Assembly (NCBI RefSeq): GCF_048403405.1
Contig: NZ_CP183129.1
Reading direction: 5' to 3' (one strand)
DNA length: 64,000 nt
Source: Escherichia coli
GTDB taxonomy: Bacteria > Pseudomonadota > Gammaproteobacteria > Enterobacterales > Enterobacteriaceae
Below are positions 31,948 through 44,208 of the stretch, piece by piece. Every line of letters starts with the position of its first letter. Within the stretch, counting starts at the first letter, position 1. The notes under the pieces were generated by a model, which did not search any database, was not told the DNA's origin, and worked only from the letters and a program-made list of their open reading frames with translations. The translations under genes were made by a program, and so were the position numbers.

Positions 31948-32570
31948 CATGGTGTTCACAGAACACGCAGTTACCGGACACATCAGTTTTCCATTCGCTC
32001 CCTGGCAGTACAGGCTTCCCCTCTGACGGGATAGCCTGAAAAAATAACACAGAAAATTATTTGTTATAATTAATATAACTTACTCAAAAAAAAGCGACGA
32101 GAAAATCAGCATCAACGAACAATAAGCGCCAATACGTGATAACAAATGGCAGCCATATTTATCTGCAGTATAAGCAATGGACAGGATAACCACTCCAGAA
32201 ACCGTCAGCATAAAATCCATTTGAACTTCCCCGGACAAAATCGACTCATCTAAAGATTTACAGCTCTTTTTATTATCAATATGTTAAAAGTAAAATAAAC
32301 AGATGTTCAATAACACGAATACAAAAACGTGCTGAAATTCAATGAATCCATTTCTGTGTCATCAATTAATAGTGATAAACATCCGGCTTCTTCCACCATC
32401 GCACCGGACAGGCGACTATGAGGGGACAACGCCGCGCTCCGTTAACGCGGTAAACCCCGGTGTGTGTCGTTTTTGATTATCCCCGCACACTCGCGCAGAG
32501 GAGTCTCCCTGTCGGGCTGCGGTCTCTGTTAATGCGGGGATACGGCGACAATACCGCGCATCAGCAAAAC

Positions 32571-33044
32571 CTATTTCAGGCACTGAGTGCGGATATAGTC
32601 CTGCGCCCCTTCCAGCTGCTTCTGCATCAGCATCAACCGTTCTCTGAGAGTGAAATAATCCCGTTCAGCGGTGTCTGCCAGTTGGGGGCCGGTTGTATTA
32701 TCCACGCGGGCGGTGCCGGTGGCTTCACGCACGGGACCTGGACAGGTGGCGTTGATACGCAGGCGCTTACGACCAGCGGCAACGTCAGCGCGAAGAGTTT
32801 CATTTTCAGCTCTCGCATCGGCTAATTCCCTCGAGTATTTTGCATCGAGCGCAGCAACATCGCGCTGGCGCACCTGCATATCAGTAATGGTTGCGTTCGC
32901 CAGCTTCAGTTCACTGGCTTTGTTATCGCGCTGCGCTTTGTAGGTAATCGCGTTATCACGGTAATGGTCTGTTGCCATCCACAGCGCTCCACAGGCCACC
33001 AGCAGAATAACGATAAACGCGGAAAGCATTCGGTTTATGTTCAC
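32571..33044 (-). CDS. Rz: Spanin inner-membrane subunit Rz
   Basis: 157 aa; ...[45 protein letters not shown]...[15 protein letters not shown]... lambda Rz-like. Confidence 0.9.
32633..32818 (-). CDS. Rz1: Spanin outer-membrane lipoprotein Rz1 (nested in Rz, +1 frame)
   Basis: 61 aa [61 protein letters not shown]; lipobox LVVSAC, Pro-rich. Confidence 0.85.
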
Positions 33045-33172
33045 CCCAGCAGCCCCGACGAAGACAACATCATCCAGGCCATGGAAAGAAAAAGAGCAAC
33101 CAGCATTAGTGAAAATGAAATGCCGACAATTACACAGAGGATCTTCGCCAGCGTTATGAGTTTGTCTGACAT
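33041..33172 (-). CDS. Small membrane protein (43 aa) coupled to the Rz start
   Basis: [52 protein letters not shown]; single TM helix. Confidence 0.5.
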
Positions 33173-33186
33173 GCTTAATCCTCCCT

Positions 33187-33369
33187 TCACGATTTCAACG
33201 CAATGACCAGTTTTGCCAGCCCATACAGCATCGGGGACACAGCAACACCGACCGCCACCCACTTAATGGCAAAAGCCAGTGCTCTGCTGATGTCATCAGT
33301 TACAGGCGCTTTCAGTTCAAGGCCGTTTTTCATAGTCAACCTCAACAGAATTCGTTTATACTTTTCCAT
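33187..33369 (-). CDS. Small membrane protein (~60 aa)
   Basis: [70 protein letters not shown]-terminal TM helix. Confidence 0.5.
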
Positions 33370-33402
33370 GTTCTCCCTTGCCTTATCCAAGGTCAGAAAC
33401 AC

Positions 33403-33437
33403 AAAACCCCGCTTGCAGCCAACAAACGGGGTTTTTA
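33403..33437. terminator. Bidirectional-looking intrinsic terminator between endolysin and downstream small genes
   Basis: aaaaccccg...cggggttttt with flanking A and T runs. Confidence 0.55.
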
Positions 33438-33525
33438 CTTTTATTCACTTAGGTTTTGCCAGTTCTCAGGATTTCGTGTTATCCGTCCGCATTAGCCAAC
33501 GTCATTTTTCAACAAAATATTCTGC

Positions 33526-34059
33526 TTATTTGTCAATTCCCCAGCACGCCAGCGCGCTCTCCTGGTCACGCCGTGAGACCTGTCCATAGCAGTTATTTGA
33601 ACGAATACGGCAGTCTCTGCCACCGTCCTTAATCCACCAGCGAATCGCCTCACATGCTCCCCTGCGATCGCCAGCATTAATTCGTCTGTAAAACGTCGAC
33701 GGGAAACACTTACCGGGACCAATGTTGTACGGACAGAATGACGCGATCCCCGCTTTCTGGGGTTCGGTCAATGGCACTTTGATGTTTTTCTCCACCCATG
33801 CCAGCGCCTTATCACGCTCAATGGCGTTAACCCGGTCGCATTTTTCCTTCGACAACTTCATGCCCGGAACGACAGGTTTGCCATCCACCAGGATGGCACC
33901 GCGGCAGATGGTCCAGATACCCGCGCCATCACGGTATGCCGTGGTGTGGTTACCTTCCTTTTCATCCAGAAACTGGTCGAGAATGTCAGGCGCAGGCGCA
34001 CCAGCGGCAATCAGCGCCAGAACGGCAGCCGACAGGCCGTATCTGATTTTTGCGTTCAT
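33526..34059 (-). CDS. R: SAR endolysin (GH24 lysozyme, R)
   Basis: 177 aa; N-terminal signal-anchor YGLSAAVLALIAAGA, catalytic E-x8-D-x5-T (EGNHTTAYRDGAGIWT). Confidence 0.85.
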   Translation of the reverse strand: MNAKIRYGLSAAVLALIAAGAPAPDILDQFLDEKEGNHTTAYRDGAGIWTICRGAILVDGKPVVPGMKLSKEKCDRVNAIERDKALAWVEKNIKVPLTEPQKAGIASFCPYNIGPGKCFPSTFYRRINAGDRRGACEAIRWWIKDGGRDCRIRSNNCYGQVSRRDQESALACWGIDK

Positions 34060-34164
34060 GGATATTTATCAGGATTTATCGGTTTCTGAGCCCTGGATAT
34101 GTTTATCAGTTCCAGCCTGTTGCCTCAGGCTGCTAACAGGTCAATACAATCATGAGGATTATTT

Positions 34165-34437
34165 ATGGACAATAACACCATTTCTCTACAGGAGTTGCTC
34201 GACAGCATTTCCAGGCTTCGGGAAGACGTGAATACCCTTACCGTCGCCTTCTCATATCTGGCATTCTCAATTCCAAGGGAACAGATGCAATCAACGCTGG
34301 CATCAATCCAGTTTGAATCATGCAATCCCAAATGGTCTCAGGAACAACAAGACTCTTTCAGGCGGCTTGCTGTATTACTGGATGAAAAATATGCTGGTAA
34401 AATTACCATTTCGGCGGACTCTTCAGAGAACCCGTAA
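34165..34437 (+). CDS. Hypothetical protein, opposite strand inside the lysis cassette
   Basis: 90 aa ORF with GAGGA RBS 7 nt upstream of ATG; 3' end overlaps the convergent gene 34403..34747. Confidence 0.35.
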   Translation: MDNNTISLQELLDSISRLREDVNTLTVAFSYLAFSIPREQMQSTLASIQFESCNPKWSQEQQDSFRRLAVLLDEKYAGKITISADSSENP

Positions 34438-34747
34438 TTATTCCCGGTAGTTTTCCTCTGTAGGTTATCAACACATCCTGCGCCTCTAAAATTACGGGGC
34501 GCTTTTCCGGCGACTGCTCATCCCCTTCACATAACCCGGCAGCAACATCCAGGAAGACCTGTCTGATGCTCCTTCTGGCTGCTGCCTCATAAAACTCCAG
34601 CGCGGCACCTTCAACACGGTCCAGCGAGATGTCCAGGTCAAAAATTTCACCGTCAAAGCGTTTTTTGTCCCGTAACGCTAAAGTTACCGTAACTTTATTC
34701 TCAAAATTGCGGATCCCTTTCACAATCAGTTTATAGTTTTGAGTCAT
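34403..34747 (-). CDS. Uncharacterized lysis-cassette protein (YdfR-like position between holin and endolysin)
   Basis: 114 aa ORF; start 4 nt after the S stop with RBS inside the S 3' end. Confidence 0.6.
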   Translation of the reverse strand: MTQNYKLIVKGIRNFENKVTVTLALRDKKRFDGEIFDLDISLDRVEGAALEFYEAAARRSIRQVFLDVAAGLCEGDEQSPEKRPVILEAQDVLITYRGKLPGIITGSLKSPPKW

Positions 34748-34751
34748 TGAA

Positions 34752-34967
34752 TTACTCTCCCCGTGCAGCCTTACGACGGTCCTCTCTGATTTTGAAATAC
34801 AGGTTAGTCAGATATGTCAGCAGCCCAAACAGCAGACTCCCCAGCACGCCTATTGCCGCCCACTGAGACGGGGAAACCCTGTCCAGCAACTGCAGGAACC
34901 AGTAGCCCGTTCCCACCGCTGACGTGGTGTATGACACACCTGTTGTGATTTTTTCCATCTGGTACAT
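34752..34967 (-). CDS. S: Pinholin S (phage 21 S21-type, dual start)
   Basis: [71 protein letters not shown]; two TM helices, M1/M4 dual-start motif. Confidence 0.85.
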
Positions 34968-35117
34968 ACCCCGTCTCCCGTTATCCGGAAGCTGACAACA
35001 ATAAAAAAAGCCACCAGTTAAGTACTGATGGCTCTGATAACTCATGCAGGCATCTCAGACGACCCACTGACACTACCGGTGAGTTTAACGATACCTTCCA
35101 TTTGGCTGGCTCACTTT

Positions 35118-36971
35118 TTATGATGATGCCGGTGCATTTATCTCCAGCACCAGACTTTCTATCTCAACGCCATACGCTGCATTTTTGGTAATATCCGTCA
35201 GCGTCAGCGCATTCAGCCCCAGTGTCAGACTGTCTTTTATGACCTGGAATGCCGGGCCAGCCACTCCATTCAGTTTCGGAGTAACCGTGGCACTGCCGGC
35301 GGTGAACACCAGCTCCAGCGTCTGCCAGTCGTTACTGTAATTCCCGAACTCGCCCAACTTTGTGTTTCCTGCTTTCTTGTGATGCATCAGATTCAGTTTG
35401 CCGTCTGTGGTCTGGGTGAAGAACGACATCAGGAACGGGTTACCAGTCCCGGTCATCGCCACGACGTCAGGTAACGCTACATCGGTATACAGATAAATTC
35501 CCAGACCGAACTGATTGTTGGTCAGTGCGCCTGACAGTCGAAACTTACAGCTCAGTCTGCCACCCCGTGTCAGCAGGGAGACTGCGTCATCCACCGGGCG
35601 CGTCAGGGACCAGGCTTTATTGCTCTGCTTGGTGATCTTAAATACACCATCTGACAACTGAATTCCGCCATTCTTAATGCTCCAGCCCTGCGCAGCAGCG
35701 TCTCCGGCTGTCGGCAACAGGGAGATTGTGCGTATGGATGCATCTTCAGACGGCCCCGATGGCGTGTCGCCGCCGGGCGAGAGTTTGATTTCCGGTGCCT
35801 TACCACTAATGAAGGCTAAGGTGCGACCGGCTACGTTCAGAATAGCAGTTGCCATACGATCGGGAATAATGCCACGACGCGCCCATGAGCTGAAATGCGT
35901 CGGGCGATTTGATGATACCCAGTTTTTGTTCGTTCGGGATGCCGAACCGTAATAACCAGACCCGACAATATCAGGATCTTCTGACGGGTTGTTTGTCGGT
36001 GTATTAACTCCGCTACCATCGGTCATAAAGGGAACAAAATAAATCTGCTGGGATTCTTTACCTTTATATGCACCATATACCACTTCATATTGCGTACCGT
36101 GTTCTTGTTTCCACGCGTATGTCGTGTCGCCACAAATCCAGGGGACTGATGCCGGACTTCCACCGTGACACTGCGCTGCCAGCCCGGCAAGGTCAGCACG
36201 GAACTGCTGTACCATTGCAAGAAATGCTGCTGGCTGCTGGGCGTAACTGGCATTCGTCATATCGAATTCCCCCTGCATCCAGCATATCGCCAGCAAAACG
36301 TTTTTCGGGTTTTTCTGCAATGCTGCCTTCGTGCGGAAAAGCAGATCCTGATATAACGGCTTACCCACTCCCCAGCGAGCCGAATCCTGACTGGCTCCCG
36401 TGGACTCGCTGAATGTCCCCTCCGTGCCCTGGGTGAATGCCGAACCACCACGACAGCATGGTACCAGCAGGATCCCCGCATTATTAGGGATATACGGAAG
36501 CAGTTTTTTGGCAATATGTAAGCCCTGTCCGACACAGCCGTACTGCCCTTTGCTCAGGTCAGCCCGGGGATGGTTAATCGTACTCATATCCTGAACATCA
36601 TGCAGACAATGGTCAGCAGGAATGATGTCGTTAAATACGCATACTTCACCACCGGGAGTCACTGTGTTACGACGGGCCAGTTGCTTAATGCGCGGATGGG
36701 GCGCATCGTATGAATCCGGAAGCGGAAGCCCTTCACCGTAAGCCATGGCATTGGATTGCCCGGCCAGTACGATGACGTAGTACCACTCCGGCTCAGTTGC
36801 ACCACTGACGACCACATCACCTTCTGCTGCAATCGCCTGCATCAGGGTATAAGGGGTTATGGCCACCGGACTACCAAACGGCTGCCAGCCCTCCTTCAGT
36901 TTTTGTGTCAGTCGTTTCGCAAGGTCTGACGGCGATGCCGCCCTGACCACGTCATAGTGTTTAAATGCCAT
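35118..36971 (-). CDS. nanS: Prophage sialate O-acetylesterase NanS-p-like (SGNH hydrolase)
   Basis: 617 aa; SGNH block I VLAGQSNAMAYG; sits upstream of the lysis genes as in Stx-type phages. Confidence 0.75.
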   Translation of the reverse strand: MAFKHYDVVRAASPSDLAKRLTQKLKEGWQPFGSPVAITPYTLMQAIAAEGDVVVSGATEPEWYYVIVLAGQSNAMAYGEGLPLPDSYDAPHPRIKQLARRNTVTPGGEVCVFNDIIPADHCLHDVQDMSTINHPRADLSKGQYGCVGQGLHIAKKLLPYIPNNAGILLVPCCRGGSAFTQGTEGTFSESTGASQDSARWGVGKPLYQDLLFRTKAALQKNPKNVLLAICWMQGEFDMTNASYAQQPAAFLAMVQQFRADLAGLAAQCHGGSPASVPWICGDTTYAWKQEHGTQYEVVYGAYKGKESQQIYFVPFMTDGSGVNTPTNNPSEDPDIVGSGYYGSASRTNKNWVSSNRPTHFSSWARRGIIPDRMATAILNVAGRTLAFISGKAPEIKLSPGGDTPSGPSEDASIRTISLLPTAGDAAAQGWSIKNGGIQLSDGVFKITKQSNKAWSLTRPVDDAVSLLTRGGRLSCKFRLSGALTNNQFGLGIYLYTDVALPDVVAMTGTGNPFLMSFFTQTTDGKLNLMHHKKAGNTKLGEFGNYSNDWQTLELVFTAGSATVTPKLNGVAGPAFQVIKDSLTLGLNALTLTDITKNAAYGVEIESLVLEINAPASS

Positions 36972-37199
36972 GAATCCTCCCGGGCGGGATAATGTTGTGA
37001 GTCAGATAAGGAGCAGGCTGAAGTCCGGAAGTTACAGGACAATGGCAGAAGGGAGACTACAGCCCGCAATTCGAAAAAGACCGCGCAGTTGCGCAGAGTG
37101 ATTACTATGGGGTATTATTCGCCAGCTGAAATATTACTTCACGTTTTATTGTTTATTCCTTGCCGCCCGCGTCTCCCAGCGCGGGCTTTTTTTGTCCAT

Positions 37200-37440
37200 A
37201 AGAAAGCCCCTCCGGAGAGGGGCTAAAGCCGCGTATCTGTATCATCATGCACATGGTGCCGGGTGCCTCCCGGTGAGTTCAGCCCGGTGCCACTAAACCC
37301 GCGTCATTCTCGTTTTGATAATCAGAGATTATACCGTCACCAGTCGCCCCTCCGCTCAGGGGGATTCACCATGCGAAATTTTTTTAACAAATGCCCAGTC
37401 TGACAGGCAACTGTCAACTTACTGAATTGTGAGCAACATA
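37200..37440. repeat. Structured repeat copy 1 (~240 bp) in the tRNA-to-nanS spacer
   Basis: Shares blocks aaagcccctccggagaggggct, catggtgccgggtgcctcccggtga, gcccctccgc.cagggggattcaccatgc, ctgaattgtgag with copy 2. Confidence 0.75.
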
Positions 37441-37685
37441 GCATTTAACGGGGAACCTGTTTTCTGCAGTAAAAAGGCCCACCGGAGCGGATGGGCCTGG
37501 AAGGATAGCGGTCATGTGATGCCGGTTTCCCGGTAACTCAGCACCGGTATCTGAGTCAACGTTTTCTCTACTGGGTCATTTCCGATACGCCCTGCCTGCT
37601 GACAGGCTTTCATCACATCTGAAAATATAGCACCCTGACTGATACTGTAGTACCTAAGGTTCCAGAAACTGTGATGTATCCGGCA

Positions 37686-37905
37686 CAGAAAAGCCCCTCC
37701 GGAGAGGGGCTGGAGAGTGGCGCTATGTGCCATTGCATGGTGCCGGGTGCCTCCCGGTGAATTCAGTACCAGCACCTGAATCCGCGATTATCCCATATAC
37801 CTACTCGCTGATTGCCCCTCCGCACAGGGGGATTCACCATGCCAGTTTCTTTTAACAAACTCCCCGCAAACCAGACAACAGTCAACCGCCTGAATTGTGA
37901 GACAT
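37686..37905. repeat. Structured repeat copy 2 (~220 bp)
   Basis: Paralogous to 37200-37440 with the same conserved hairpins. Confidence 0.75.
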
Positions 37906-37946
37906 TTAAAAAAAAGCCCGCAAAAGCGAGCCAGGGAAAATAAGTG

Positions 37947-38023
37947 TGGCGCGTTGTACTGGATTCGAACCAGTGACCGATTGCTTAGAAGGCAATTGCT
38001 CTGTCCGGCTGAGCTAACAACGC
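37947..38023 (-). tRNA. argO: tRNA-Arg (anticodon TCT)
   Basis: Clean cloverleaf read by hand: acceptor gcgttgt/acaacgc, D-stem gctc/gagc, anticodon loop cttctaa, T-loop ttcgaat, 3' CCA encoded. Confidence 0.85.
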
Positions 38024-38036
38024 AGGATACAGATAA

Positions 38037-38113
38037 TGGACCGCCTTCGGGGACCCGAACTCCGCGCAACCAGCTTCGAAGGCTGGCGCTCTTTCCTGAT
38101 GAGCTAATGGCGG
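38037..38113 (-). tRNA. tRNA-like gene, possibly tRNA-Arg (anticodon TCG), imperfect stems
   Basis: Cloverleaf can be drawn (anticodon loop cttcgaa) but acceptor and T stems each have a mismatch and the T-loop lacks the usual A58. Confidence 0.5.
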
Positions 38114-38120
38114 TATGTGA

Positions 38121-38196
38121 TGGTGGCCCTTGCTGGATTTGAACCAGCGACCTGGCGATTATGAGTCGCTCGCTCTCACCACTGAGCTAAAGGGCC
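38121..38196 (-). tRNA. ileZ: tRNA-Ile2-type (anticodon CAT)
   Basis: ggccctttagctcagtggtgagagc...ctcataa...ggttcaaatccagcaagggccacca; closely resembles ileX-type tRNA. Confidence 0.85.
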
Positions 38197-38245
38197 GGAA
38201 GCAGAATAATAATGGTGCGTAATTAATTCTGCAATCTCATCCGTT

Positions 38246-38572
38246 TCAAACGATTAAATCCTGAACTTCCCTGACTGTCTGCTCAAAACGTCCGGTCTCC
38301 AGTTCAACGCCAATCGCACGACGCCCGAGCGCCAGTGCCGCTTTTACCGTTGAACCTGAGCCCATAAAAAAATCTGCAACCAGGTCTCCCGGACGACTGC
38401 TTGCGCTGATTATCTGCTGCAGCATTTCTGCCGGTTTTTCGCACGGATGTTTCCCGGGATAGAACTGCACCGGTTTATGCGTCCAGACATCGGTATACGG
38501 CACCTGCGCTGTCACGCCAAAATACCGCCGCAGTCGGCATTCACAACCACAAGCGTGTTTAACGTACTGCAC
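38246..38572 (-). pseudogene. 3' remnant of a beta-class N6/N4 DNA methyltransferase gene
   Basis: 108 aa ORF holds only the C-terminal SAM-binding motif (DLVADFFMGSGSTVKAA...IGVE); no DPPY-containing N-terminal part and no room for it upstream. Confidence 0.65.
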
Positions 38573-38682
38573 AGCTTTTCAGACATAAAAAGGCCGCCTG
38601 ATAGCAGCCTTTTCACATTAAAATTAAGTTTTTCTTTACTCTGTAGTATGGGAAATTAGCATTCCCTACTGGGTTTATACAA

Positions 38683-39426
38683 CTAATCTGACGTCACACG
38701 CACCATTATACTTACTAAAGAAAAGTCATCATCAGGTCCGGCTCTCTCTATACGACGCAAAATACCATTAGAAAACTTCTGACTATTACTCATAGTATTT
38801 GATGTAAATCTGGGGCGTTTTTCCCAAACGTTATGAACTCCATCAGACATGATACACAGATGATACAACCCGTTAATACCAGGCAAATCTTTCCACGGGA
38901 TAAAATCACAGTCGTATTCCATATCAACATTTGAGGCTATGGCAGTCGTTAAGATATTTTTTCCCGGTTTATTCTTCAAATCTCTGGGTTTAAAAATATT
39001 CTGATCAATTAACATCTGATGTCTGGTATCGTCCTTCGTCAATTGATATGCTTTCTTTTCTCCAATGCAATACAAGCGACAATCACCAATATGACCAATA
39101 ATAATTCCGCTATCACAAACATAACAAAAGGTAAGTGTAGTAGCAGCTTTATCGAACTCATCATTAACTTCAGCTAACGACATAACTTTTCGCTTAACTT
39201 CAGCAAATACATTCGGAACTGCATCAAAAGATAAACTTGTCAATGCTGAAAGTTCAGCGATTGCCATGGATGAAGCATAACTGGCACCAGAGTATGAACC
39301 TACACCATCAGCTACGGCAAATAAGATGCCGTCTCCTACAATTTTTGGAGGAAGCAATGAATCTTCGTTGACCCTACCTGGTTCTTTTGGATACGAGAAT
39401 GATGAAGTCGCTATCAGCTGAATCAT
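38683..39426 (-). CDS. PP2C-family (PPM) Ser/Thr protein phosphatase
   Basis: 247 aa; PPM motifs NEDS, AVADGVGS, GDCRLY, IMSDGVHNV, DDDFSLV; AAGGAG RBS; AT-rich. Confidence 0.8.
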   Translation of the reverse strand: MIQLIATSSFSYPKEPGRVNEDSLLPPKIVGDGILFAVADGVGSYSGASYASSMAIAELSALTSLSFDAVPNVFAEVKRKVMSLAEVNDEFDKAATTLTFCYVCDSGIIIGHIGDCRLYCIGEKKAYQLTKDDTRHQMLIDQNIFKPRDLKNKPGKNILTTAIASNVDMEYDCDFIPWKDLPGINGLYHLCIMSDGVHNVWEKRPRFTSNTMSNSQKFSNGILRRIERAGPDDDFSLVSIMVRVTSD

Positions 39427-39529
39427 GACTCACTCCTTAAAAAAGAATGCGCAAAATCAAACGCCACATCATCTATTGTCTGATATCTATCATCTTTATC
39501 CATCCTTGTGCACTTAGCTATGATAGGCT

Positions 39530-40186
39530 TTATTTTTTATCATCTAAATTTAAGTCTTCAATTAACCGTCCCACAGCATAAACATCAGTCTTAACTGAAT
39601 ACTCTGCATTATATAAAATCTCGGGAGCCATATATCTTGTACTTCCCATACGGGTACCGATCTCGGTCAATTTAGTGGTATCCCCTTCGGGATTCGTATC
39701 TTTTACCAGACCAAAATCAGACACCTTGTATGTTCCGTCGCTAAATCGCAAAACATTAAAGGGTTTTATATCTCTGTGTAAATAGCCTTTGGCATGGATG
39801 TAAGCTACACCATCTAATACCATTTTCACTATTGAAATTTTTTGATCTGTTGTAAGAAGGTTGTTCGTTATTTCGTGCTCAAGATCACATTCTGCTTTAT
39901 CCATAATGAACCATGGATTCTCAACAAACAAATCGCACAAATAAATAGGAACAATATTGCTATGTACGCAATGTGATTGATACACAACCTCCCTTTTAAA
40001 ACGCCTTCTAAACTGCTCTATTTGCGCCAAAAGCTCTGGTTTTTCGGGTGCTAAAACCTTTCTAGCATAATCCCCGCATTCACCTTTATTGAGGTTGTAA
40101 ACCTTAACGTGTTCAACAAAGCCAAATGCCCCTCTTCCAATCAACTGAATTCGTTTTATAAAGTAATTACCGTGCTGTTCTTCCAT
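39530..40186 (-). CDS. Hanks-type Ser/Thr protein kinase (compact, ~219 aa)
   Basis: G-loop GRGAFGFV, Lys in YARKVL, catalytic loop HRDIKPFN, SDFG, MAPE, TDVYAVG; start set at MEEQ with GGTGAG RBS (track ORF extends to 40261); AT-rich. Confidence 0.8.
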   Translation of the reverse strand: MEEQHGNYFIKRIQLIGRGAFGFVEHVKVYNLNKGECGDYARKVLAPEKPELLAQIEQFRRRFKREVVYQSHCVHSNIVPIYLCDLFVENPWFIMDKAECDLEHEITNNLLTTDQKISIVKMVLDGVAYIHAKGYLHRDIKPFNVLRFSDGTYKVSDFGLVKDTNPEGDTTKLTEIGTRMGSTRYMAPEILYNAEYSVKTDVYAVGRLIEDLNLDDKK

Positions 40187-40260
40187 TAAGCTCACCGACC
40201 TAAATTGTAACAATATCCATATATTACAACTACAGATAAAAAGGTCCACAGAGTTAAGCA

Positions 40261-40290
40261 AAAAACCCGCACATTTGAGCGGGTTTATAC
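40261..40290 (-). terminator. tR'-like intrinsic terminator downstream of the late promoter
   Basis: On the late strand cccgctcaaatgtgcggg followed by TTTTTT. Confidence 0.65.
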
Positions 40291-40321
40291 ACTTTACAGC
40301 AATATATCACATTTACATAAA

Positions 40322-40350
40322 ATATATGCTATCTAATTGACTTTTGCAAT
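40322..40350 (-). promoter_or_regulatory. Late promoter pR'-like
   Basis: Late strand -35 TTGCAA, 17 bp spacer, -10 TATATT, about 50 nt upstream of the terminator, overlapping the Q-like gene 3' end. Confidence 0.55.
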
Positions 40351-41028
40351 ATCTCGCTGCAAAAATGCCGCTTTTTGTTGAGATCTCCTTTTCACAGTGC
40401 AAATCAGAGATTCGGTATCGAGGTTCATAAAAATGTCGAGTATTTCACGCCAGTAGCTCACATAATTGTGGCTCCAGTTGTCAGGCTTAATCCCACACAG
40501 ACGGGCAAGCTCCTGTTGCTGGTAGATATCATGTCCTATAACCCATCTCCTGACATCCTGTGCAGCCAGCCAGATTAATTTTTTCAGGCGTTCCTGTGTC
40601 TTCCCTGCAATTTTCCTGGTACCAGAGTGAGTCTTAAATTCTGTCCATGCCCACTGCGTTATCGCGATCTGATACTCCCAGCAAGTATTTCCGCTGTAAC
40701 ACCACAACAACCAGGCTTTATGATGTTCTTCAAGAGACAAAACAGCCCGCCGCCATGATGATGTAGAAAAAGCAACCTGACTGACCAGAGGAATTGACGT
40801 CCCCTTCGCCAGCGATTGTTTTCCCGGGATTGGTGGATTATCCCGCGTTATCATTTTTCCGGTCACTTCATCGCGGTACCGGATTTTTTTACGCCTGTAA
40901 CGCCCTGTATCGAACATGGCATTCTCCTGCCAGGCTTCAAGCTGACCTTTTGTTGCCCCACTCAAATCAGCGGTGGCGATAATGAGCTGCTCACGCACAA
41001 ACTGTAAATACTGGTTATTCATGCGCAC
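40333..41028 (-). CDS. Putative late-gene antiterminator (Q-like by position)
   Basis: 231 aa ORF directly upstream of the pR'/tR' unit and downstream of rusA. Confidence 0.45.
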   Translation of the reverse strand: MRMNNQYLQFVREQLIIATADLSGATKGQLEAWQENAMFDTGRYRRKKIRYRDEVTGKMITRDNPPIPGKQSLAKGTSIPLVSQVAFSTSSWRRAVLSLEEHHKAWLLWCYSGNTCWEYQIAITQWAWTEFKTHSGTRKIAGKTQERLKKLIWLAAQDVRRWVIGHDIYQQQELARLCGIKPDNWSHNYVSYWREILDIFMNLDTESLICTVKRRSQQKAAFLQRDIAKVN

Positions 41029-41378
41029 TCCAGTTCTGTGATTTTTATCCCCAGCCGCCCACCAGGAACGAGCTGACCGCGCACAATATTGATTTCATCA
41101 AACTGCTCGTCGTCTATAAGTAGTCCGGCATGCGTCAGCGCATCCAGTGGTGCCTTCAGGATATTGTCCAGGTCGCGGCGGCGCTTATCCGGTGGCTCTG
41201 CAATCACCTTTATCGCCAGCCTTCCGGACAGGCTTAATTTCAGCCGCTGCTGGCGAACAATAAGCGCCACAGCCCGGCGATAACGCTTTCCCTCCTCCGA
41301 GATAAAATATGTGCTGCCACGGCGTCGCCAGTAAGTGTTCACCGTCGGCGGGTAAGGTAAAACCAAATCTATGAGCAT
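41019..41378 (-). CDS. rusA: Holliday junction resolvase RusA
   Basis: 119 aa; ...PPDKRRRDLDNILKAPLDALTHAGLLIDDEQ... RusA signature. Confidence 0.85.
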   Translation of the reverse strand: MLIDLVLPYPPTVNTYWRRRGSTYFISEEGKRYRRAVALIVRQQRLKLSLSGRLAIKVIAEPPDKRRRDLDNILKAPLDALTHAGLLIDDEQFDEINIVRGQLVPGGRLGIKITELECA

Positions 41379-41390
41379 CAGTCACCTCTT

Positions 41391-42437
41391 TTACCCAAGC
41401 ACGCCAGTTGCAAAGGCGTGATCAAGAAAACGAAAAATTAAATCAACCTGAGAACCATGCTTTTCTTCGAACGCCAGAGGATCCGCATGAAGCTCGTTGT
41501 GATGCTCCCGACACAGCGGTAGCGTGAAAATATCGTGAGATTTTGTCCCCATTCCGCCCTGACCATGACCAATCAGGTGATGGGGATCGTCGGCTGGCTT
41601 ACCACAACACGCACACGGCTGTGTCTTCACCCAGCGTGTGTATTTCTCGTTAACCCAGCGGCGACGTTTAGGTCGTTTCATGAAAGATTCCGGAGACTCA
41701 GGATCAACGGCAATGCTGACCACCGTCTCTTCCTGTGGCGGGTTTTGCTGGTGGGCGTGAGGCAGCGGCGCAAGATTTTTTGTGCGCTGCTTCAGTATGC
41801 TGGTGGCGGTCTGCTCTCCCGGTACGATGTCGCTTTCACGGTACATTGAGCGGATTTTTTCCGCACGCAACCCCAGCGAACGACGTAATACCGCTTCCGG
41901 TAGCGCGTCCGCCACCTGATTGCGGACCGCCCACCAGGATAATTCAGCCAGCGATAATTCCCGTTCCTGCGAGCCATTCATTGCATGGCGTATGACGTCA
42001 ATCATCCATGCAGACAGGTTTTGGTGAGCAAGTTGCCCGAGTGATTCGGAGGTCTGGTCGCGCAGCTGGTTGTCGCAGTGCCAGCACAACACCATTGCGC
42101 CGGTACCATAACGGTGAATGACGGTTTCACTGTGGTGATAATCGCCGTGTGGCCACTGGCAGGATTTAACATGGCGCAGTAACCAATCAGACAATGCGCC
42201 AGCGCCACCAGCAGCACGAATCACTCGTTCGTCGCTGAAAAATGGCAGTAATGATTTATCCTCCGCCAGCGGCTGGCGAACGGCAGGAACGACCCCGGAC
42301 GGCAGATTACGCATGCTTTTCGGTTCCGGCTCCACCAGTACCCGGGTATTGTGGAATACCGGCATGGATTCACGGCCCGGCTTAACGATCACCAGCCCGA
42401 GTTCCGGTACCAGAACAGGTCGAAGTAATACCCGCAC
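41391..42437 (-). CDS. DUF968/YdfU-like protein with C-terminal HNH-like zinc motif
   Basis: 348 aa; C-terminal CACCGKPADDPHHLIGHGQGGMGTKSHDIFTLPLCREHHNELH. Confidence 0.6.
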   Translation of the reverse strand: MRVLLRPVLVPELGLVIVKPGRESMPVFHNTRVLVEPEPKSMRNLPSGVVPAVRQPLAEDKSLLPFFSDERVIRAAGGAGALSDWLLRHVKSCQWPHGDYHHSETVIHRYGTGAMVLCWHCDNQLRDQTSESLGQLAHQNLSAWMIDVIRHAMNGSQERELSLAELSWWAVRNQVADALPEAVLRRSLGLRAEKIRSMYRESDIVPGEQTATSILKQRTKNLAPLPHAHQQNPPQEETVVSIAVDPESPESFMKRPKRRRWVNEKYTRWVKTQPCACCGKPADDPHHLIGHGQGGMGTKSHDIFTLPLCREHHNELHADPLAFEEKHGSQVDLIFRFLDHAFATGVLG

Positions 42438-42438
42438 G

Positions 42439-42723
42439 TTACCTCCAGATGCGTTGCTGGAATGTGCGGGACGGACGCGGTGGGCGTTCGGAATAAGGGA
42501 GTCTGACGTAGATTATCCAGTGACGATAATCGAGGGTGAGGGCTTTCCTAAACTCATATCCACGTCTGCGGTAGTTATGAATCAGCCATTCGGCCTGTTC
42601 TTCAGTACAGGGATCGTGCTGATACCAGTCATATTTGAATGCGTGAGAACGCCACCCGTGCCTGCTGGCAAAGGCAGAATCAGAATTGCGAAATTTGAAA
42701 TTATGCGCCATTGTCATCTCCAA
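42439..42723 (-). CDS. Hypothetical phage protein
   Basis: 94 aa ORF abutting the DUF968 gene. Confidence 0.4.
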   Translation of the reverse strand: MEMTMAHNFKFRNSDSAFASRHGWRSHAFKYDWYQHDPCTEEQAEWLIHNYRRRGYEFRKALTLDYRHWIIYVRLPYSERPPRPSRTFQQRIWR

Positions 42724-42770
42724 TGGCGCTGCAGGTTGCCAGTTGTTCAGGCTGGCTCACGTATTATAAC

Positions 42771-42992
42771 TTATTCCCGAACTACCTTGAAACCGAGTCT
42801 TTCCAAGTATTCAATGAATGCCTCAACAGATAACACTACATGATCATCAGGAATTAACGCTGTGTAGGTAATACCCCCATTCTCAACGCGCACAGCATAG
42901 AGGCCATCTTCACTAAAAATTTCACGTAATTCTTCGATTTTCATCAACAGAATCCTTCCAGATAAATAGCACTCCCCCTGTTCGGGGTCCAT
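42771..42992 (-). CDS. Hypothetical phage protein
   Basis: 73 aa ORF. Confidence 0.4.
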   Translation of the reverse strand: MDPEQGECYLSGRILLMKIEELREIFSEDGLYAVRVENGGITYTALIPDDHVVLSVEAFIEYLERLGFKVVRE

Positions 42993-43074
42993 CCCTCTTC
43001 TCCCTGCGCGCTACTTAAGTATTTTTGATTCTATTCTGGCACCGTCCAAAACTTCAAACACGTTGAAAATAAAA

Positions 43075-43096
43075 ACAAAAAACCCGCCGAAGCGGG
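43075..43096 (-). terminator. Intrinsic terminator after the XRE-peptidase gene
   Basis: Late strand cccgcttcggcggg followed by TTTTTTGTTTTT; same hairpin as at 44912-44936. Confidence 0.7.
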
Positions 43097-43101
43097 TATA
43101 C

Positions 43102-44208
43102 TCAAACAATCTGGAAAATATTTCTTGGATTTGTAATAGGTCTGTTGATGGAGAACAACTCACGAATTAAATCTTGGCTCAAGCCAGTTTTCATAAGAAT
43201 TCTTAGCCAGGTTGCATCATCCAGCATTTCAATCGCCTCGGCCAGCATGCCGGGTTCTTCAGGGCGCAAAAGTTCATCACCAGGTTCAACTCTCGTATAC
43301 CCTCTGGAATTAAGATGCATATAGCCAGTTCTTGCCTGTTCCTGGGTCAATAAGCCTAATGCGCTGGCTCGATAAATACACATTTTAAGGCTGATTTTCC
43401 ATCTAAGTTTAAATTCAACCAGAGCATTCCAGTCGAATTGCTTACCTCGTATTCGTGGAAATTCTTTAATGAAAGATAACCTGGGAACTAATAAGGCGCT
43501 CGAAAAGTGATCGGCTTGTGATTCCGTAAGTTTATCACCTGTCGTTATGCCCTCATGCATTACTAAATGCCCTAATTCATGACCTAAATCAGAGCGAAAT
43601 CTACATATGCTTTTTTTAACATTGTTCCTGATGATAACAGGCCTGTTATTGTGAACAGTAAAAGCATCAACACGATCATCGACTCCCGTAACATGCGCAA
43701 CGATTACCCCTAAACTCTCCGCCAATTTAACCATTGATGATATAGGGCCAAGACCTAAATTCCAGGCACGGCGACAATCTTCTGCCACTCGCTCAATATC
43801 ATTCGGAGTAAGTAATTCAGCCCCTGGGTGCTCCGGTATGTTAACGTCAGGAAATTCGATTTCACCTTCAACAGCAGAAATTATAATATTAAGAATCTCA
43901 GCCCTGGCCAATACACTATTAGTCAGCGTTTGAGTCCTGGACTTCTTACTCCGAAAATGGCAGACATCACTTTCCAGAGCGTATTTTCGTTCAGTAAAAA
44001 GAAAACTGGACTTAATCATAAGCGCTGAAGATATTAACTCAAGACATTGCTCCGATGGCCTGCACCCCTTCTCCAGTTTGCTAACGAATTGCTTTGTCTT
44101 GCCAATTTTTTCGGCTAACTCTTCACAAGAAAGCCCAACAGCCATTCTCGCTAGTTTGAGCTTATCACCCCGATACTCAGTGAAGTTATTCACCTGATGT
44201 TCCATCAC
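43102..44208 (-). CDS. XRE-family HTH regulator fused to ImmA/IrrE-type (COG2856) zinc metallopeptidase
   Basis: 368 aa; N-terminal HTH (LKLARMAVGLSCEELAEKIGKTKQFVSKLEKG), C-terminal HEXXH (HELGHLVMH); AT-rich. Confidence 0.75.
   Translation of the reverse strand: MMEHQVNNFTEYRGDKLKLARMAVGLSCEELAEKIGKTKQFVSKLEKGCRPSEQCLELISSALMIKSSFLFTERKYALESDVCHFRSKKSRTQTLTNSVLARAEILNIIISAVEGEIEFPDVNIPEHPGAELLTPNDIERVAEDCRRAWNLGLGPISSMVKLAESLGVIVAHVTGVDDRVDAFTVHNNRPVIIRNNVKKSICRFRSDLGHELGHLVMHEGITTGDKLTESQADHFSSALLVPRLSFIKEFPRIRGKQFDWNALVEFKLRWKISLKMCIYRASALGLLTQEQARTGYMHLNSRGYTRVEPGDELLRPEEPGMLAEAIEMLDDATWLRILMKTGLSQDLIRELFSINRPITNPRNIFQIV

Follow-up and report, generated by a model that had tools for sequence, protein, structure and literature searches.

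The lysis region of a lambdoid prophage was analysed in a 64,000-nucleotide (nt) stretch of Escherichia coli DNA (NCBI RefSeq assembly GCF_048403405.1, contig NZ_CP183129.1), which as a whole is called the window and in which positions are counted from the first letter. The prophage is Shiga toxin (Stx)-phage-like, stx-negative and carries its lysis cassette on the minus strand. In the order of transcription, the region comprises a hairpin (35035–35007), the holin gene S, ydfR, the convergent orf90, the endolysin gene R, a second hairpin, orf60, orf43 and the spanin genes Rz/Rz1. Four of these genes (ydfR, orf90, orf60 and orf43, hereafter the extras) lie between the genes for holin, endolysin and spanin, and a preliminary description made from the sequence alone had presented the result as an unusual, expanded cassette. 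The features are listed below, with lengths in amino acids (aa) or base pairs (bp) and ribosome-binding Shine–Dalgarno sequences abbreviated as SD.

35007–35035, minus strand: intrinsic-terminator-like hairpin between the SASA/NanS-p esterase gene and the holin gene, with a 12-bp stem and then UUUUUUUAUU (seven U).
34752–34967, minus strand: holin S, class II (S21-type), 71 aa, starting MYQMEK, with a 68-aa form from Met4; phrog_9876 (E = 2.4e-40) and phrog_20 (E = 4.5e-34).
34403–34747, minus strand: ydfR, 114 aa, soluble; Pfam PF07041 (DUF1327), E = 4.9e-42 over residues 1–111, with synteny to prophage Qin.
34165–34437, plus strand: orf90, 90 aa, acidic, soluble, reverse-oriented; phrog_2411 (E = 1.1e-58).
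34113–34132, no strand assigned: perfect 7-bp inverted repeat cagcctg-ttgcct-caggctg in the divergent orf90/R intergenic region.
33526–34059, minus strand: endolysin R, a signal-arrest-release (SAR)-type, T4-lysozyme-like muramidase, 177 aa; phrog_7 (E = 6.4e-62).
33403–33435, minus strand: 14-bp intrinsic-terminator-like hairpin, ~90 nt past the R stop and 33 nt before orf60.
33187–33369, minus strand: orf60, 60 aa, a tail-anchored inner-membrane mini-protein; phrog_1115 (E = 6.5e-47); SD aaGGGAGaac.
33041–33172, minus strand: orf43, 43 aa, very hydrophobic, single-pass; phrog_4906 (E = 2.1e-23); SD aAGGGAGGattaagc (AGGGAGG).
32571–33044 (GTG start) or 32571–33029 (ATG start), minus strand: Rz, the inner-membrane spanin (i-spanin); phrog_13 (E = 1.7e-73); 'lysis protein' in RefSeq.
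32633–32818, minus strand: Rz1, the outer-membrane spanin (o-spanin), 61 aa, embedded in Rz; phrog_3198 (E = 6.3e-29); lipobox LVVSAC.

The assignment of S to the S21-type holins is borne out by its PHROG matches and by 79–82% identity to EssQ and to the EssD-type holin of a related cassette, L005 (MKSMDK alleles); its RefSeq entry reads 'class II holin family protein'. The gene is preceded by the SD GGGAGACGGGG. Hydropathy analysis places residues 36–56 alone above threshold, with residues 8–28, corresponding to the first transmembrane domain (TMD1), weakly hydrophobic. The TMD2 motif W36..G40..S44..G48 is invariant in the alignment and the C-terminal tail is charged, a two-TMD, glycine-zipper layout; S is presumed to be a pinholin. 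The start MYQM had been described as dual. The two Met codons are present, but the longer product gains no Lys or Arg, in contrast to the charge-adding start of phage 21 S71 (MKSM), and the first residues vary in relatives (MYQ, MDQ, MNQ and IHQ, with IHQM having no first Met); MYQM is therefore not established as a phage-21-like antiholin motif. The notion that MYQM holins, having no Lys-bearing start, are compensated by mini-proteins in trans had seemed plausible from 10 loci and was discarded, because MKSMDK holins co-occur with orf60/orf43 and with a 45-aa family in the 80-locus survey described below. The ratio of nonsynonymous to synonymous substitution rates (dN/dS), determined here and throughout by the Nei–Gojobori method against diverged copies, is 0.07–0.10 for S.

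The endolysin carries the catalytic motif E35-x8-D44-x5-T50, which agrees with the E-x8-D/C-x5-T pattern of the lysozyme family. Its N-terminus, MNAKIRYG-LSAAVLALIAAGAPAP, contains the Ala/Gly-rich segment YGLSAAVLALIAAGAPAP and reaches a 19-residue hydropathy of 1.74, which fits the SAR domain claimed for it. R is 94% identical to the R protein of Min27, a 933W-like Stx2 phage, and its dN/dS is 0.05–0.08. The R clone of 933W is given as a SAR endolysin in PMC9239132, the comparison made here being with Min27. The gene has no SD; its A/T-rich leader, ending ...ATAAATATCCATG (34060–34090), is common to all 80 related loci whatever lies upstream, and in the K-12 prophage Qin the same bases form the 3′ end of ydfR.

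The spanin genes, also as described, form an embedded two-component pair, in which Rz has a TMD at residues 1–23 and the lipoprotein gene Rz1 lies inside Rz in the +1 frame. Rz is without a good SD of its own. Because the start codon used in relatives (ATG AAC CGT, MNR...) is ATA here, the Rz start must be either the upstream GTG at 33044, which overlaps the orf43 stop and gives MNINRMLS..., or the downstream ATG at 33029, which is the RefSeq choice; the GTG start alone retains a positively charged residue ahead of the TMD. The statement that the second mini-protein gene, orf43, overlaps the Rz start therefore holds if GTG 33044 is used and fails with ATG 33029.

Two hairpins flank the S–ydfR–R unit on both sides. 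The one after R, described as an intrinsic terminator, has the structure of one: the minus-strand RNA folds with −21.6 kcal/mol (z = −4.5) and the plus strand with −14.3, two G–U pairs that form in the minus-strand RNA only making it stronger there, and the stem is followed by the tail UUUUGUGUUUCUG, the first four U of which are also paired in the stem. This hairpin is kept in E. coli relatives wherever the downstream mini-genes occur, with variation mainly in the loop, and the Salmonella copy exhibits two compensatory stem changes and one broken pair. The hairpin upstream of S folds with −17.0 kcal/mol (z = −5.0), a stability equalled in 0 of 200 shuffles, and could shield the lysis genes from polymerase that arrives without Q modification. 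By the precedent of lambda, Q-modified polymerase is expected to read through both hairpins. Between the R stop and its hairpin lies the motif GGATAACACGAAATCC (minus strand, 33469–33484), which persists from E. coli to Salmonella (there GGATAACACAAAATCC) in a spacer that otherwise diverges. No known RNA family was found inside the cassette with Rfam.

All four extras are coding genes under selection: they belong to PHROG families of their own (YdfR phrog_406 and others; orf90 phrog_2411; orf60 phrog_1115; orf43 phrog_4906), dN/dS falls below 1 in the proposed frame alone, and the open reading frames (ORFs) are intact in diverged relatives; RefSeq annotation covers all four. Their GC content is 44–47.5% (orf90 44%), compared with 53–55% for S, R and Rz. 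Topology prediction, which the preliminary description had proposed as a check, returned single-pass membrane proteins for orf60 and orf43, as expected, and none for YdfR and orf90.

The 114-aa product had been suspected to be YdfR/DUF1327 as in Qin, and the Pfam match settles that identity. Its ATG lies 4 nt past the holin stop (gagTAAttcaATG), as stated, with an SD, GGAG, within the final holin codons. The S–ydfR junction, GGAGAGTAAnnnnATG, is kept in 54 of 55 survey loci, the remaining one having a 3-nt gap, and this conservation suggests that YdfR is made by coupling to the holin. The protein has no hydrophobic segment. An AlphaFold model shows a three-strand sheet and a long helix over residues 5–77 (pLDDT 73–91) followed by a disordered tail; this tail, residues 78–114, is a separate, swappable module. 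The family is narrow (62 clusters at 50% identity), and dN/dS is 0.28–0.47. Residues 1–72 are 81% identical to those of K-12 YdfR. In a 2026 study, two-hybrid and co-purification assays showed binding of K-12 YdfR to the catalytic, N-terminal half of RNase E, for which residues 1–72 suffice, and RNA co-purified with the protein; overproduction had little effect on the transcriptome and caused no strong growth defect (PMC13232886). The same authors cite a hit for YdfR in an envelope-integrity screen. Given the RNase E binding, RNA co-purification and mild overproduction effect of the K-12 orthologue, together with the 81% identity, we favour for YdfR a late function directed at RNA or RNase E over a function in lysis; such a role is argued by analogy. 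A 3128-aa protein from a 1.8-billion-protein library (P0345) contains six repeats matching YdfR residues 9–75 (32% identity, E = 4.9e-9), for example at its residues about 384–452 (FELDLSQAEIVGSELEFFTNAA versus FDLDISLDRVEGAALEFYEAAA). The DUF1327 core could be a more widespread repeat domain, or the match could be a compositional artefact.

The convergent 90-aa ORF with a good ribosome-binding site is present as described: its upstream SD region is tGAGGAttatttATG (GAGGA), and it overlaps the 3′ end of ydfR by 35 nt. Alignment with O157 and BP-4795 cassettes that lack orf90 places it on a clean ~330-nt insertion, which takes the place of the final two codons of ydfR and leaves ~45 nt before R; in PhiR12_1 another reverse-strand gene occupies the same place. 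Full-length, intact homologues with 58–85% identity are found in Escherichia, Shigella and Citrobacter, and dN/dS is 0.21–0.34. Hydropathy reveals no TMD, and the predicted structure is a three-helix bundle (pLDDT 71.5), for which comparison with the PDB gave no match at E ≤ 0.001; a PDB-sequence profile search was also empty, as was a Pfam search. A sigma-70 consensus scan called no promoter upstream of orf90. A candidate weak promoter, TTGCCT-19nt-TACAAT, which that scan did not call, has hexamers that are kept in the related cassettes L005 and L006; it overlaps the inverted repeat at 34113–34132, which folds with −14.9 and −12.9 kcal/mol. In these respects orf90 behaves as a soluble, reverse-strand moron of the bor type.

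The orf60 product has a basic N-terminus and, by hydropathy, a single TMD at about residues 30–58. An alternative in-frame start, Met13 (ATG 33333), has its own GAGG, and many database homologues are of this 48-aa form. From E. coli to Salmonella, residues 27–60, which hold the TMD, are nearly invariant and the N-terminus is variable. The whole-gene dN/dS is 0.20 and that of the core 0.08–0.13 (Salmonella copies, dS about 0.9–1.2), with overall dS of 0.6–1.2. In Salmonella the family also occurs alone, downstream of tail-fibre genes and outside lysis cassettes, which argues against an obligatory link to lysis. One such gene, on Salmonella contig ABIOES010000031 (L013, 2900–3201, plus strand), encodes 66 aa with an acidic N-terminus and the same TMD; it has a terminator hairpin upstream and its own SD, so that the hairpin–SD–mini-gene layout of the lysis cassette recurs at another moron site.

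In orf43 the first 24 residues are conserved and the remainder changes with its hydrophobicity retained. The ratio of nonsynonymous to synonymous polymorphism (pN/pS), pooled over eight alleles, is 0.44, versus 1.0–1.15 in the other two sense frames, and 0.3–0.9 for the C-terminal half. The orf43 stop (GGGGTGA) abuts or overlaps the start of the poorly SD-equipped Rz, which suggests a coupling role for orf43 beside any role of its peptide. In every cassette inspected orf43 lies between R and Rz, usually directly 5′ of Rz; the exceptions to this adjacency are cassette L009 and 24 survey loci in which another small ORF, not Rz, follows it. Plaque-forming PhiR phages carry orf60 and orf43 genes identical to those described here. 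A consensus promoter scan found none for either gene, and the hairpin lies upstream of the pair, not downstream; having no promoter of their own, the two should be made with the late lysis proteins.

Searches for the identity of the small genes returned little. Neither orf60 nor orf43 has a significant Pfam match, orf43 giving a weak DUF3930 hit at E = 0.095 only, and NCBIfam returned no match for orf60, orf43 or orf90. The PHROG families of all three are of 'unknown function', and none of the products belongs to the antiholin or releasin families represented by lambda S107, T4 RI, P1 LydB and Mu gp25 (DUF2730). In a search of 5.8 billion proteins, only 'hypothetical protein' and 'ybl58' were recovered for the three, limited to Escherichia, Shigella, Salmonella and Citrobacter, and no mention of their RefSeq accessions or of 'ybl58' was found in the literature.

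The arrangement is not unusual. Many E. coli chromosomes match the 2.6-kb stretch at 32500–35120 with 100% identity, and among 5426 complete E. coli genomes 1090 (about one in five) cover at least 80% of it; the hairpin–orf60–orf43 module occurs in 1036 of the 5426 and orf90 in 1039. Contrary to the preliminary description, the arrangement is therefore common, has been sequenced and annotated many times before and is already known. To determine how its parts vary, we surveyed 80 IMG/VR contigs with endolysins 95–100% identical to R, which are the closest relatives of R and are counted without correction for shared ancestry. The S|R spacer falls into 21 length classes (398–1445 nt) and the R|Rz spacer into 17 (26–1206 nt). 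Between R and Rz, cargo is present in 74 of 76 loci and the slot is empty in two; a YdfR-family gene stands between S and R in about 70 of 74. The R|Rz cargo includes a 44–45-aa TM family, MIDFSKLIRELRLM... (48 loci), orf43 (45 loci), orf60 (42 loci), ant (5 loci) and a 50-aa orf60 paralogue ending ...AIRWW (2 loci). Cassette L009 (1904–2500, minus strand) has four consecutive mini-ORFs, among them a truncated orf60 and a remnant of 28 aa that resembles orf60.

The distribution of each extra is independent of that of the other extras and of the core genes. No association exists between orf90 and orf60 + orf43 (7 loci with both, 7 with orf90 only, 31 with orf60 + orf43 only and 16 with neither), and both L005 and L006 have orf90 without orf60 or orf43; in L005, R overlaps Rz. 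Present in 13 survey loci, orf90 is replaced elsewhere by other reverse-strand ORFs of 91–150 aa. Variable spacers and cargo around a near-identical R identify the S|R and R|Rz junctions as cargo slots, of which the window shows one frequent filling. Two hallmarks of morons are thus found: presence or absence between the same flanking genes (the boundaries of the orf90 insertion, the alternative R|Rz contents and the slot length classes) and the deviant base composition noted above. These observations suggest that the region is a standard lysis cassette with moron-like accessory genes in two hypervariable slots and not an integrated new lysis mechanism, a reading that we consider probable. We infer that the extras are dispensable accessories or modulators.

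On this reading, the region would be a complete late-operon lysis cassette built on a class II S21-type holin, a SAR endolysin and an embedded Rz/Rz1 pair. Both internal junctions, S|R as well as R|Rz, would be prone to recombination, different phages inserting different small accessory genes there. Through coupling to the holin, ydfR would yield a soluble cytoplasmic product with RNase E or RNA, and not the envelope, as its target, by analogy with the K-12 orthologue. As a separate insertion, orf90 would probably have transcription distinct from that of the late operon. The hairpin after R may stop unmodified RNA polymerase and be read through by Q-modified polymerase, or may stabilize the mRNA 3′ end. 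Translated from their SDs, orf60 and orf43 would be produced as inner-membrane mini-proteins together with the lysis proteins, and orf43, ending at the Rz start, would probably deliver ribosomes to Rz.

Several observations weigh against treating the extras as cargo alone. The S-to-ydfR coupling, with its 4-nt gap, is near-invariant. That almost every surveyed cassette has a YdfR-family gene, and small TM ORFs in the R|Rz slot, suggests that selection keeps them there and points to more than mere passengers, subject to the shared ancestry of the sampled loci. In Salmonella, orf60 keeps its position between endolysin and spanin together with a different class II holin, and orf43 lies directly 5′ of Rz in most cassettes inspected, whatever else fills the slot. 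Lacking a promoter, orf60 and orf43 are not classical self-contained morons. Finally, the orf60 TMD shows a weak likeness to pinholin TMD2 (W-x-A-[IV]-G-V-x-x-S), which 19 of 1000 shuffles match (p about 0.02) and to which hhalign gives a probability of 6%; it is a lead, not evidence. The corresponding comparison of orf43 with holin TMD2 was rejected, as 912 of 1000 shuffles score as high, and the 45-aa family likewise showed no significant likeness.

These points bear most directly on the alternative, akin to the timing-regulator and antiholin-like roles offered in the preliminary description, that orf60, orf43 and perhaps YdfR are dedicated lysis regulators, namely antipinholin, co-holin or releasin-like factors whose helices would contact those of the pinholin or the SAR domain. 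Both mini-genes have strong SDs and belong to the late lysis operon, small TM ORFs fill the R|Rz slot in nearly all related cassettes, and orf60, with its near-invariant TMD, its small-xxx-small motifs and its resemblance to TMD2, is retained beside a second class II holin. Moreover, the upstream Met of the Stx-type holin adds no Lys, which makes an antiholin in cis doubtful, and P1 LydC/LydD (PMC9025707) and Mu releasin gp25 (PMC9239132) provide precedents. We nevertheless consider this alternative unlikely. Related cassettes do without the mini-proteins (L005 and K-12 Qin, in which R overlaps Rz, and the two survey loci with an empty R|Rz slot), the modules assort independently, and orf60 also occurs outside lysis cassettes. 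The co-occurrence of the Lys-bearing MKSMDK holin with orf60/orf43 means that these do not substitute for a lost cis antiholin. No homology to known holin, antiholin or releasin families was found, the orf43–holin likeness is not significant, and the topology and charge of orf60 are opposite to those of Mu gp25. YdfR, for its part, has no TM segment, and its K-12 orthologue can be overproduced without a strong growth defect.

It is also doubtful that orf60, orf43 and/or orf90 are lysogenic-conversion or superinfection-exclusion/defence morons unrelated to lysis, whose location would reflect permissive insertion sites and nothing more. This explanation would account for the presence/absence polymorphism, the lower GC content and the independent assortment, for the transcription of orf90 against the late operon, as in lambda bor, for the other reverse-strand ORFs (91–150 aa) that fill the orf90 slot in relatives, and for the stand-alone orf60 after tail-fibre genes, a classical moron site. 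Small inner-membrane proteins are, in addition, typical exclusion factors. However, PADLOC returned no match at E ≤ 1 for orf60, orf43 or orf90, nor for S or YdfR. Since orf60 and orf43 run in the direction of the late operon, downstream of a terminator-like hairpin and with no detectable promoter, they should be silent in the lysogen; orf90 has only a weak promoter-like site (19-nt spacer) and is soluble, not a membrane protein.

A modulatory role in lysis for some of the extras, which slot occupancy, S–ydfR coupling and the Rz-adjacent orf43 keep open, is in our estimate improbable as well. Unlikely, too, is its most far-reaching form, in which the endolysin–spanin junction of E. coli and Salmonella class II-holin cassettes would be a dedicated, fast-evolving locus of trans-acting mini-proteins (orf60, orf43 and the MIDFSKLIRE... 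family) that tune pinholes or SAR-endolysin release. There, orf60 would mimic pinholin TMD2 and co-assemble with, or poison, the heptameric pinhole; the locus would set the timing of lysis and toxin release in Stx phages; and YdfR, through RNase E, would shape late mRNA decay.

Least probable of all is that orf43 (less likely orf60 or orf90) has no function as a protein and is a leader ORF that restored Rz coupling after cargo had split R from Rz: the moderate constraint on orf43, the junction of its stop with the start of Rz (GGGGTGA...ATG), the lack of a good SD for Rz, the overlap of R itself with the Rz start in cargo-free cassettes and the unrelated mini-ORFs that end ...IRWW* at the place of the orf43 stop in L006 and L009 would all fit, but the well-conserved 24 N-terminal residues, the hydrophobicity maintained despite sequence change, the pN/pS of about 1 in the other frames, the 24 survey loci in which orf43 is followed by another small ORF instead of Rz and the clear purifying selection on orf60 and orf90 do not.

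For the reading of the region as a standard cassette with accessory cargo, the practical value lies mainly in annotation. Homologous orf43 ORFs are found in 276 phage records, mostly of Stx phages, and in most of these the ORF 5′ of Rz is unannotated. An example is the homologue in the RefSeq record of phage Min27 (L016, 2486–2640, plus strand). Other small membrane ORFs of the R|Rz slot are often unannotated too, such as the 45-aa ORF MFDFSKLIREIRVMAEKLSTWKFILIWLVFVIMASGYFIGQIRWW in NZ_CP070045 (L006, 1165–1300, minus strand), which is missing from RefSeq. If the mini-proteins do modulate lysis by pinholin and SAR endolysin, they would count as newly recognized regulators of when Stx phages lyse the host, an event that controls toxin release. 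Should YdfR act on RNase E late in development, the short list of phage modulators of host RNA decay, which includes T7 gp0.7, T4 Srd and phiKZ Dip, would gain a member.

Upstream of the cassette, over 36972–44000 (minus strand) of the window, the prophage follows the late layout of Stx phages. The full order, lysis region included, is Q, a Stk-like kinase, a PP2C phosphatase, a methylase fragment, tRNAs, nanS-p, the lysis genes and terminase; the stx genes are absent from the window, and bor is absent too. Two neighbouring features complete the list.

35118–36971: SASA/NanS-p esterase gene, 5′ of the lysis genes.
37947–38196: cluster of three tRNAs, tRNA-Ile/Met(CAT) and two tRNA-Arg.

The interval between the tRNA cluster and the esterase gene, which is the position of stx in Stx phages, is occupied by two full copies of the Rfam small RNA family STnc100 (37194–37403 and 37681–37871, minus strand; 165 and 136 bits), with a weak third copy beside them (37469–37642, 30 bits). 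In strain 118UI, otherwise identical, an IS3 element lies between the tRNAs and nanS-p; judged from the spacing in comparison with locus L010, the window is without it.

The preliminary description had set the cassette against canonical ones that lack extras, and in part this contrast holds, as R overlaps Rz in L005 and Qin and Min27 has no ydfR. To our knowledge, S, R and Rz are contiguous in phage 21, with no cargo, and this phage serves as an experimentally functional example of a cassette without extras. The phage 21 cassette, S21-R21-Rz/Rz1, shares with ours the class II holin family, the weakly hydrophobic endolysin N-terminus and the embedded Rz/Rz1; it differs in that S71 adds Lys2, whereas MYQM adds no charge, and in that the endolysin here is of the 933W/RrrQ type. 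The K-12 Qin cassette, essQ-ydfR-rrrQ-rzpQ/rzoQ, has the same S–ydfR–R order and an endolysin 89% identical to R. By contrast, it has no reverse-strand gene, hairpin or mini-proteins; ydfR overlaps rrrQ, rrrQ overlaps rzpQ, and the C-terminal tail of YdfR differs.

Also close are the Stx phages (H-19B, BP-4795, the Min27/933W-like phages and Sakai-type prophages of O157), which have the same MYQMEK holin allele and endolysins 94–96% identical to R. In comparative papers on Stx phages the cassette is treated as consisting of S, R and Rz/Rz1, with no discussion of the extra ORFs. H-19B and BP-4795 carry ydfR, as here, and BP-4795 has ydfR followed by ant and an orf43 homologue before Rz. The O157 prophages have hairpin–orf60–orf43 as here but lack orf90. 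In Min27-type Stx2 phages S is followed directly by R, ant, an orf43 homologue, Rz and a reverse bor, with no ydfR. Many Stx-phage cassettes thus have ant in the R|Rz slot where the window has the hairpin and orf60, and most are without orf90.

Two further groups of phage genes invite comparison. The lambdoid morons (lambda bor and lom, and those of HK97 and HK022) are likewise small inserted genes with presence/absence polymorphism and deviant composition, and bor is reversed like orf90. Classical morons, however, have their own promoter and terminator, whereas no promoter was detected for orf60/orf43, which lie 3′ of the hairpin, and orf90 has only the weak candidate promoter. In phages P1 and Mu, accessory membrane proteins encoded beside a SAR endolysin can modulate its release (P1, PMC9025707; Mu gp25 releasin, PMC9239132). 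P1 LydB/LydC/LydD and Mu gp25 (DUF2730) resemble orf60 and orf43 in being small membrane proteins at such a position, a likeness of analogy only, without sequence similarity to the extras. In Mu gp25 the TMD is N-terminal and the cytoplasmic domain anionic, whereas orf60, in which Pfam finds no DUF2730, has its TMD at the C-terminus and a cytoplasmic head that is basic.

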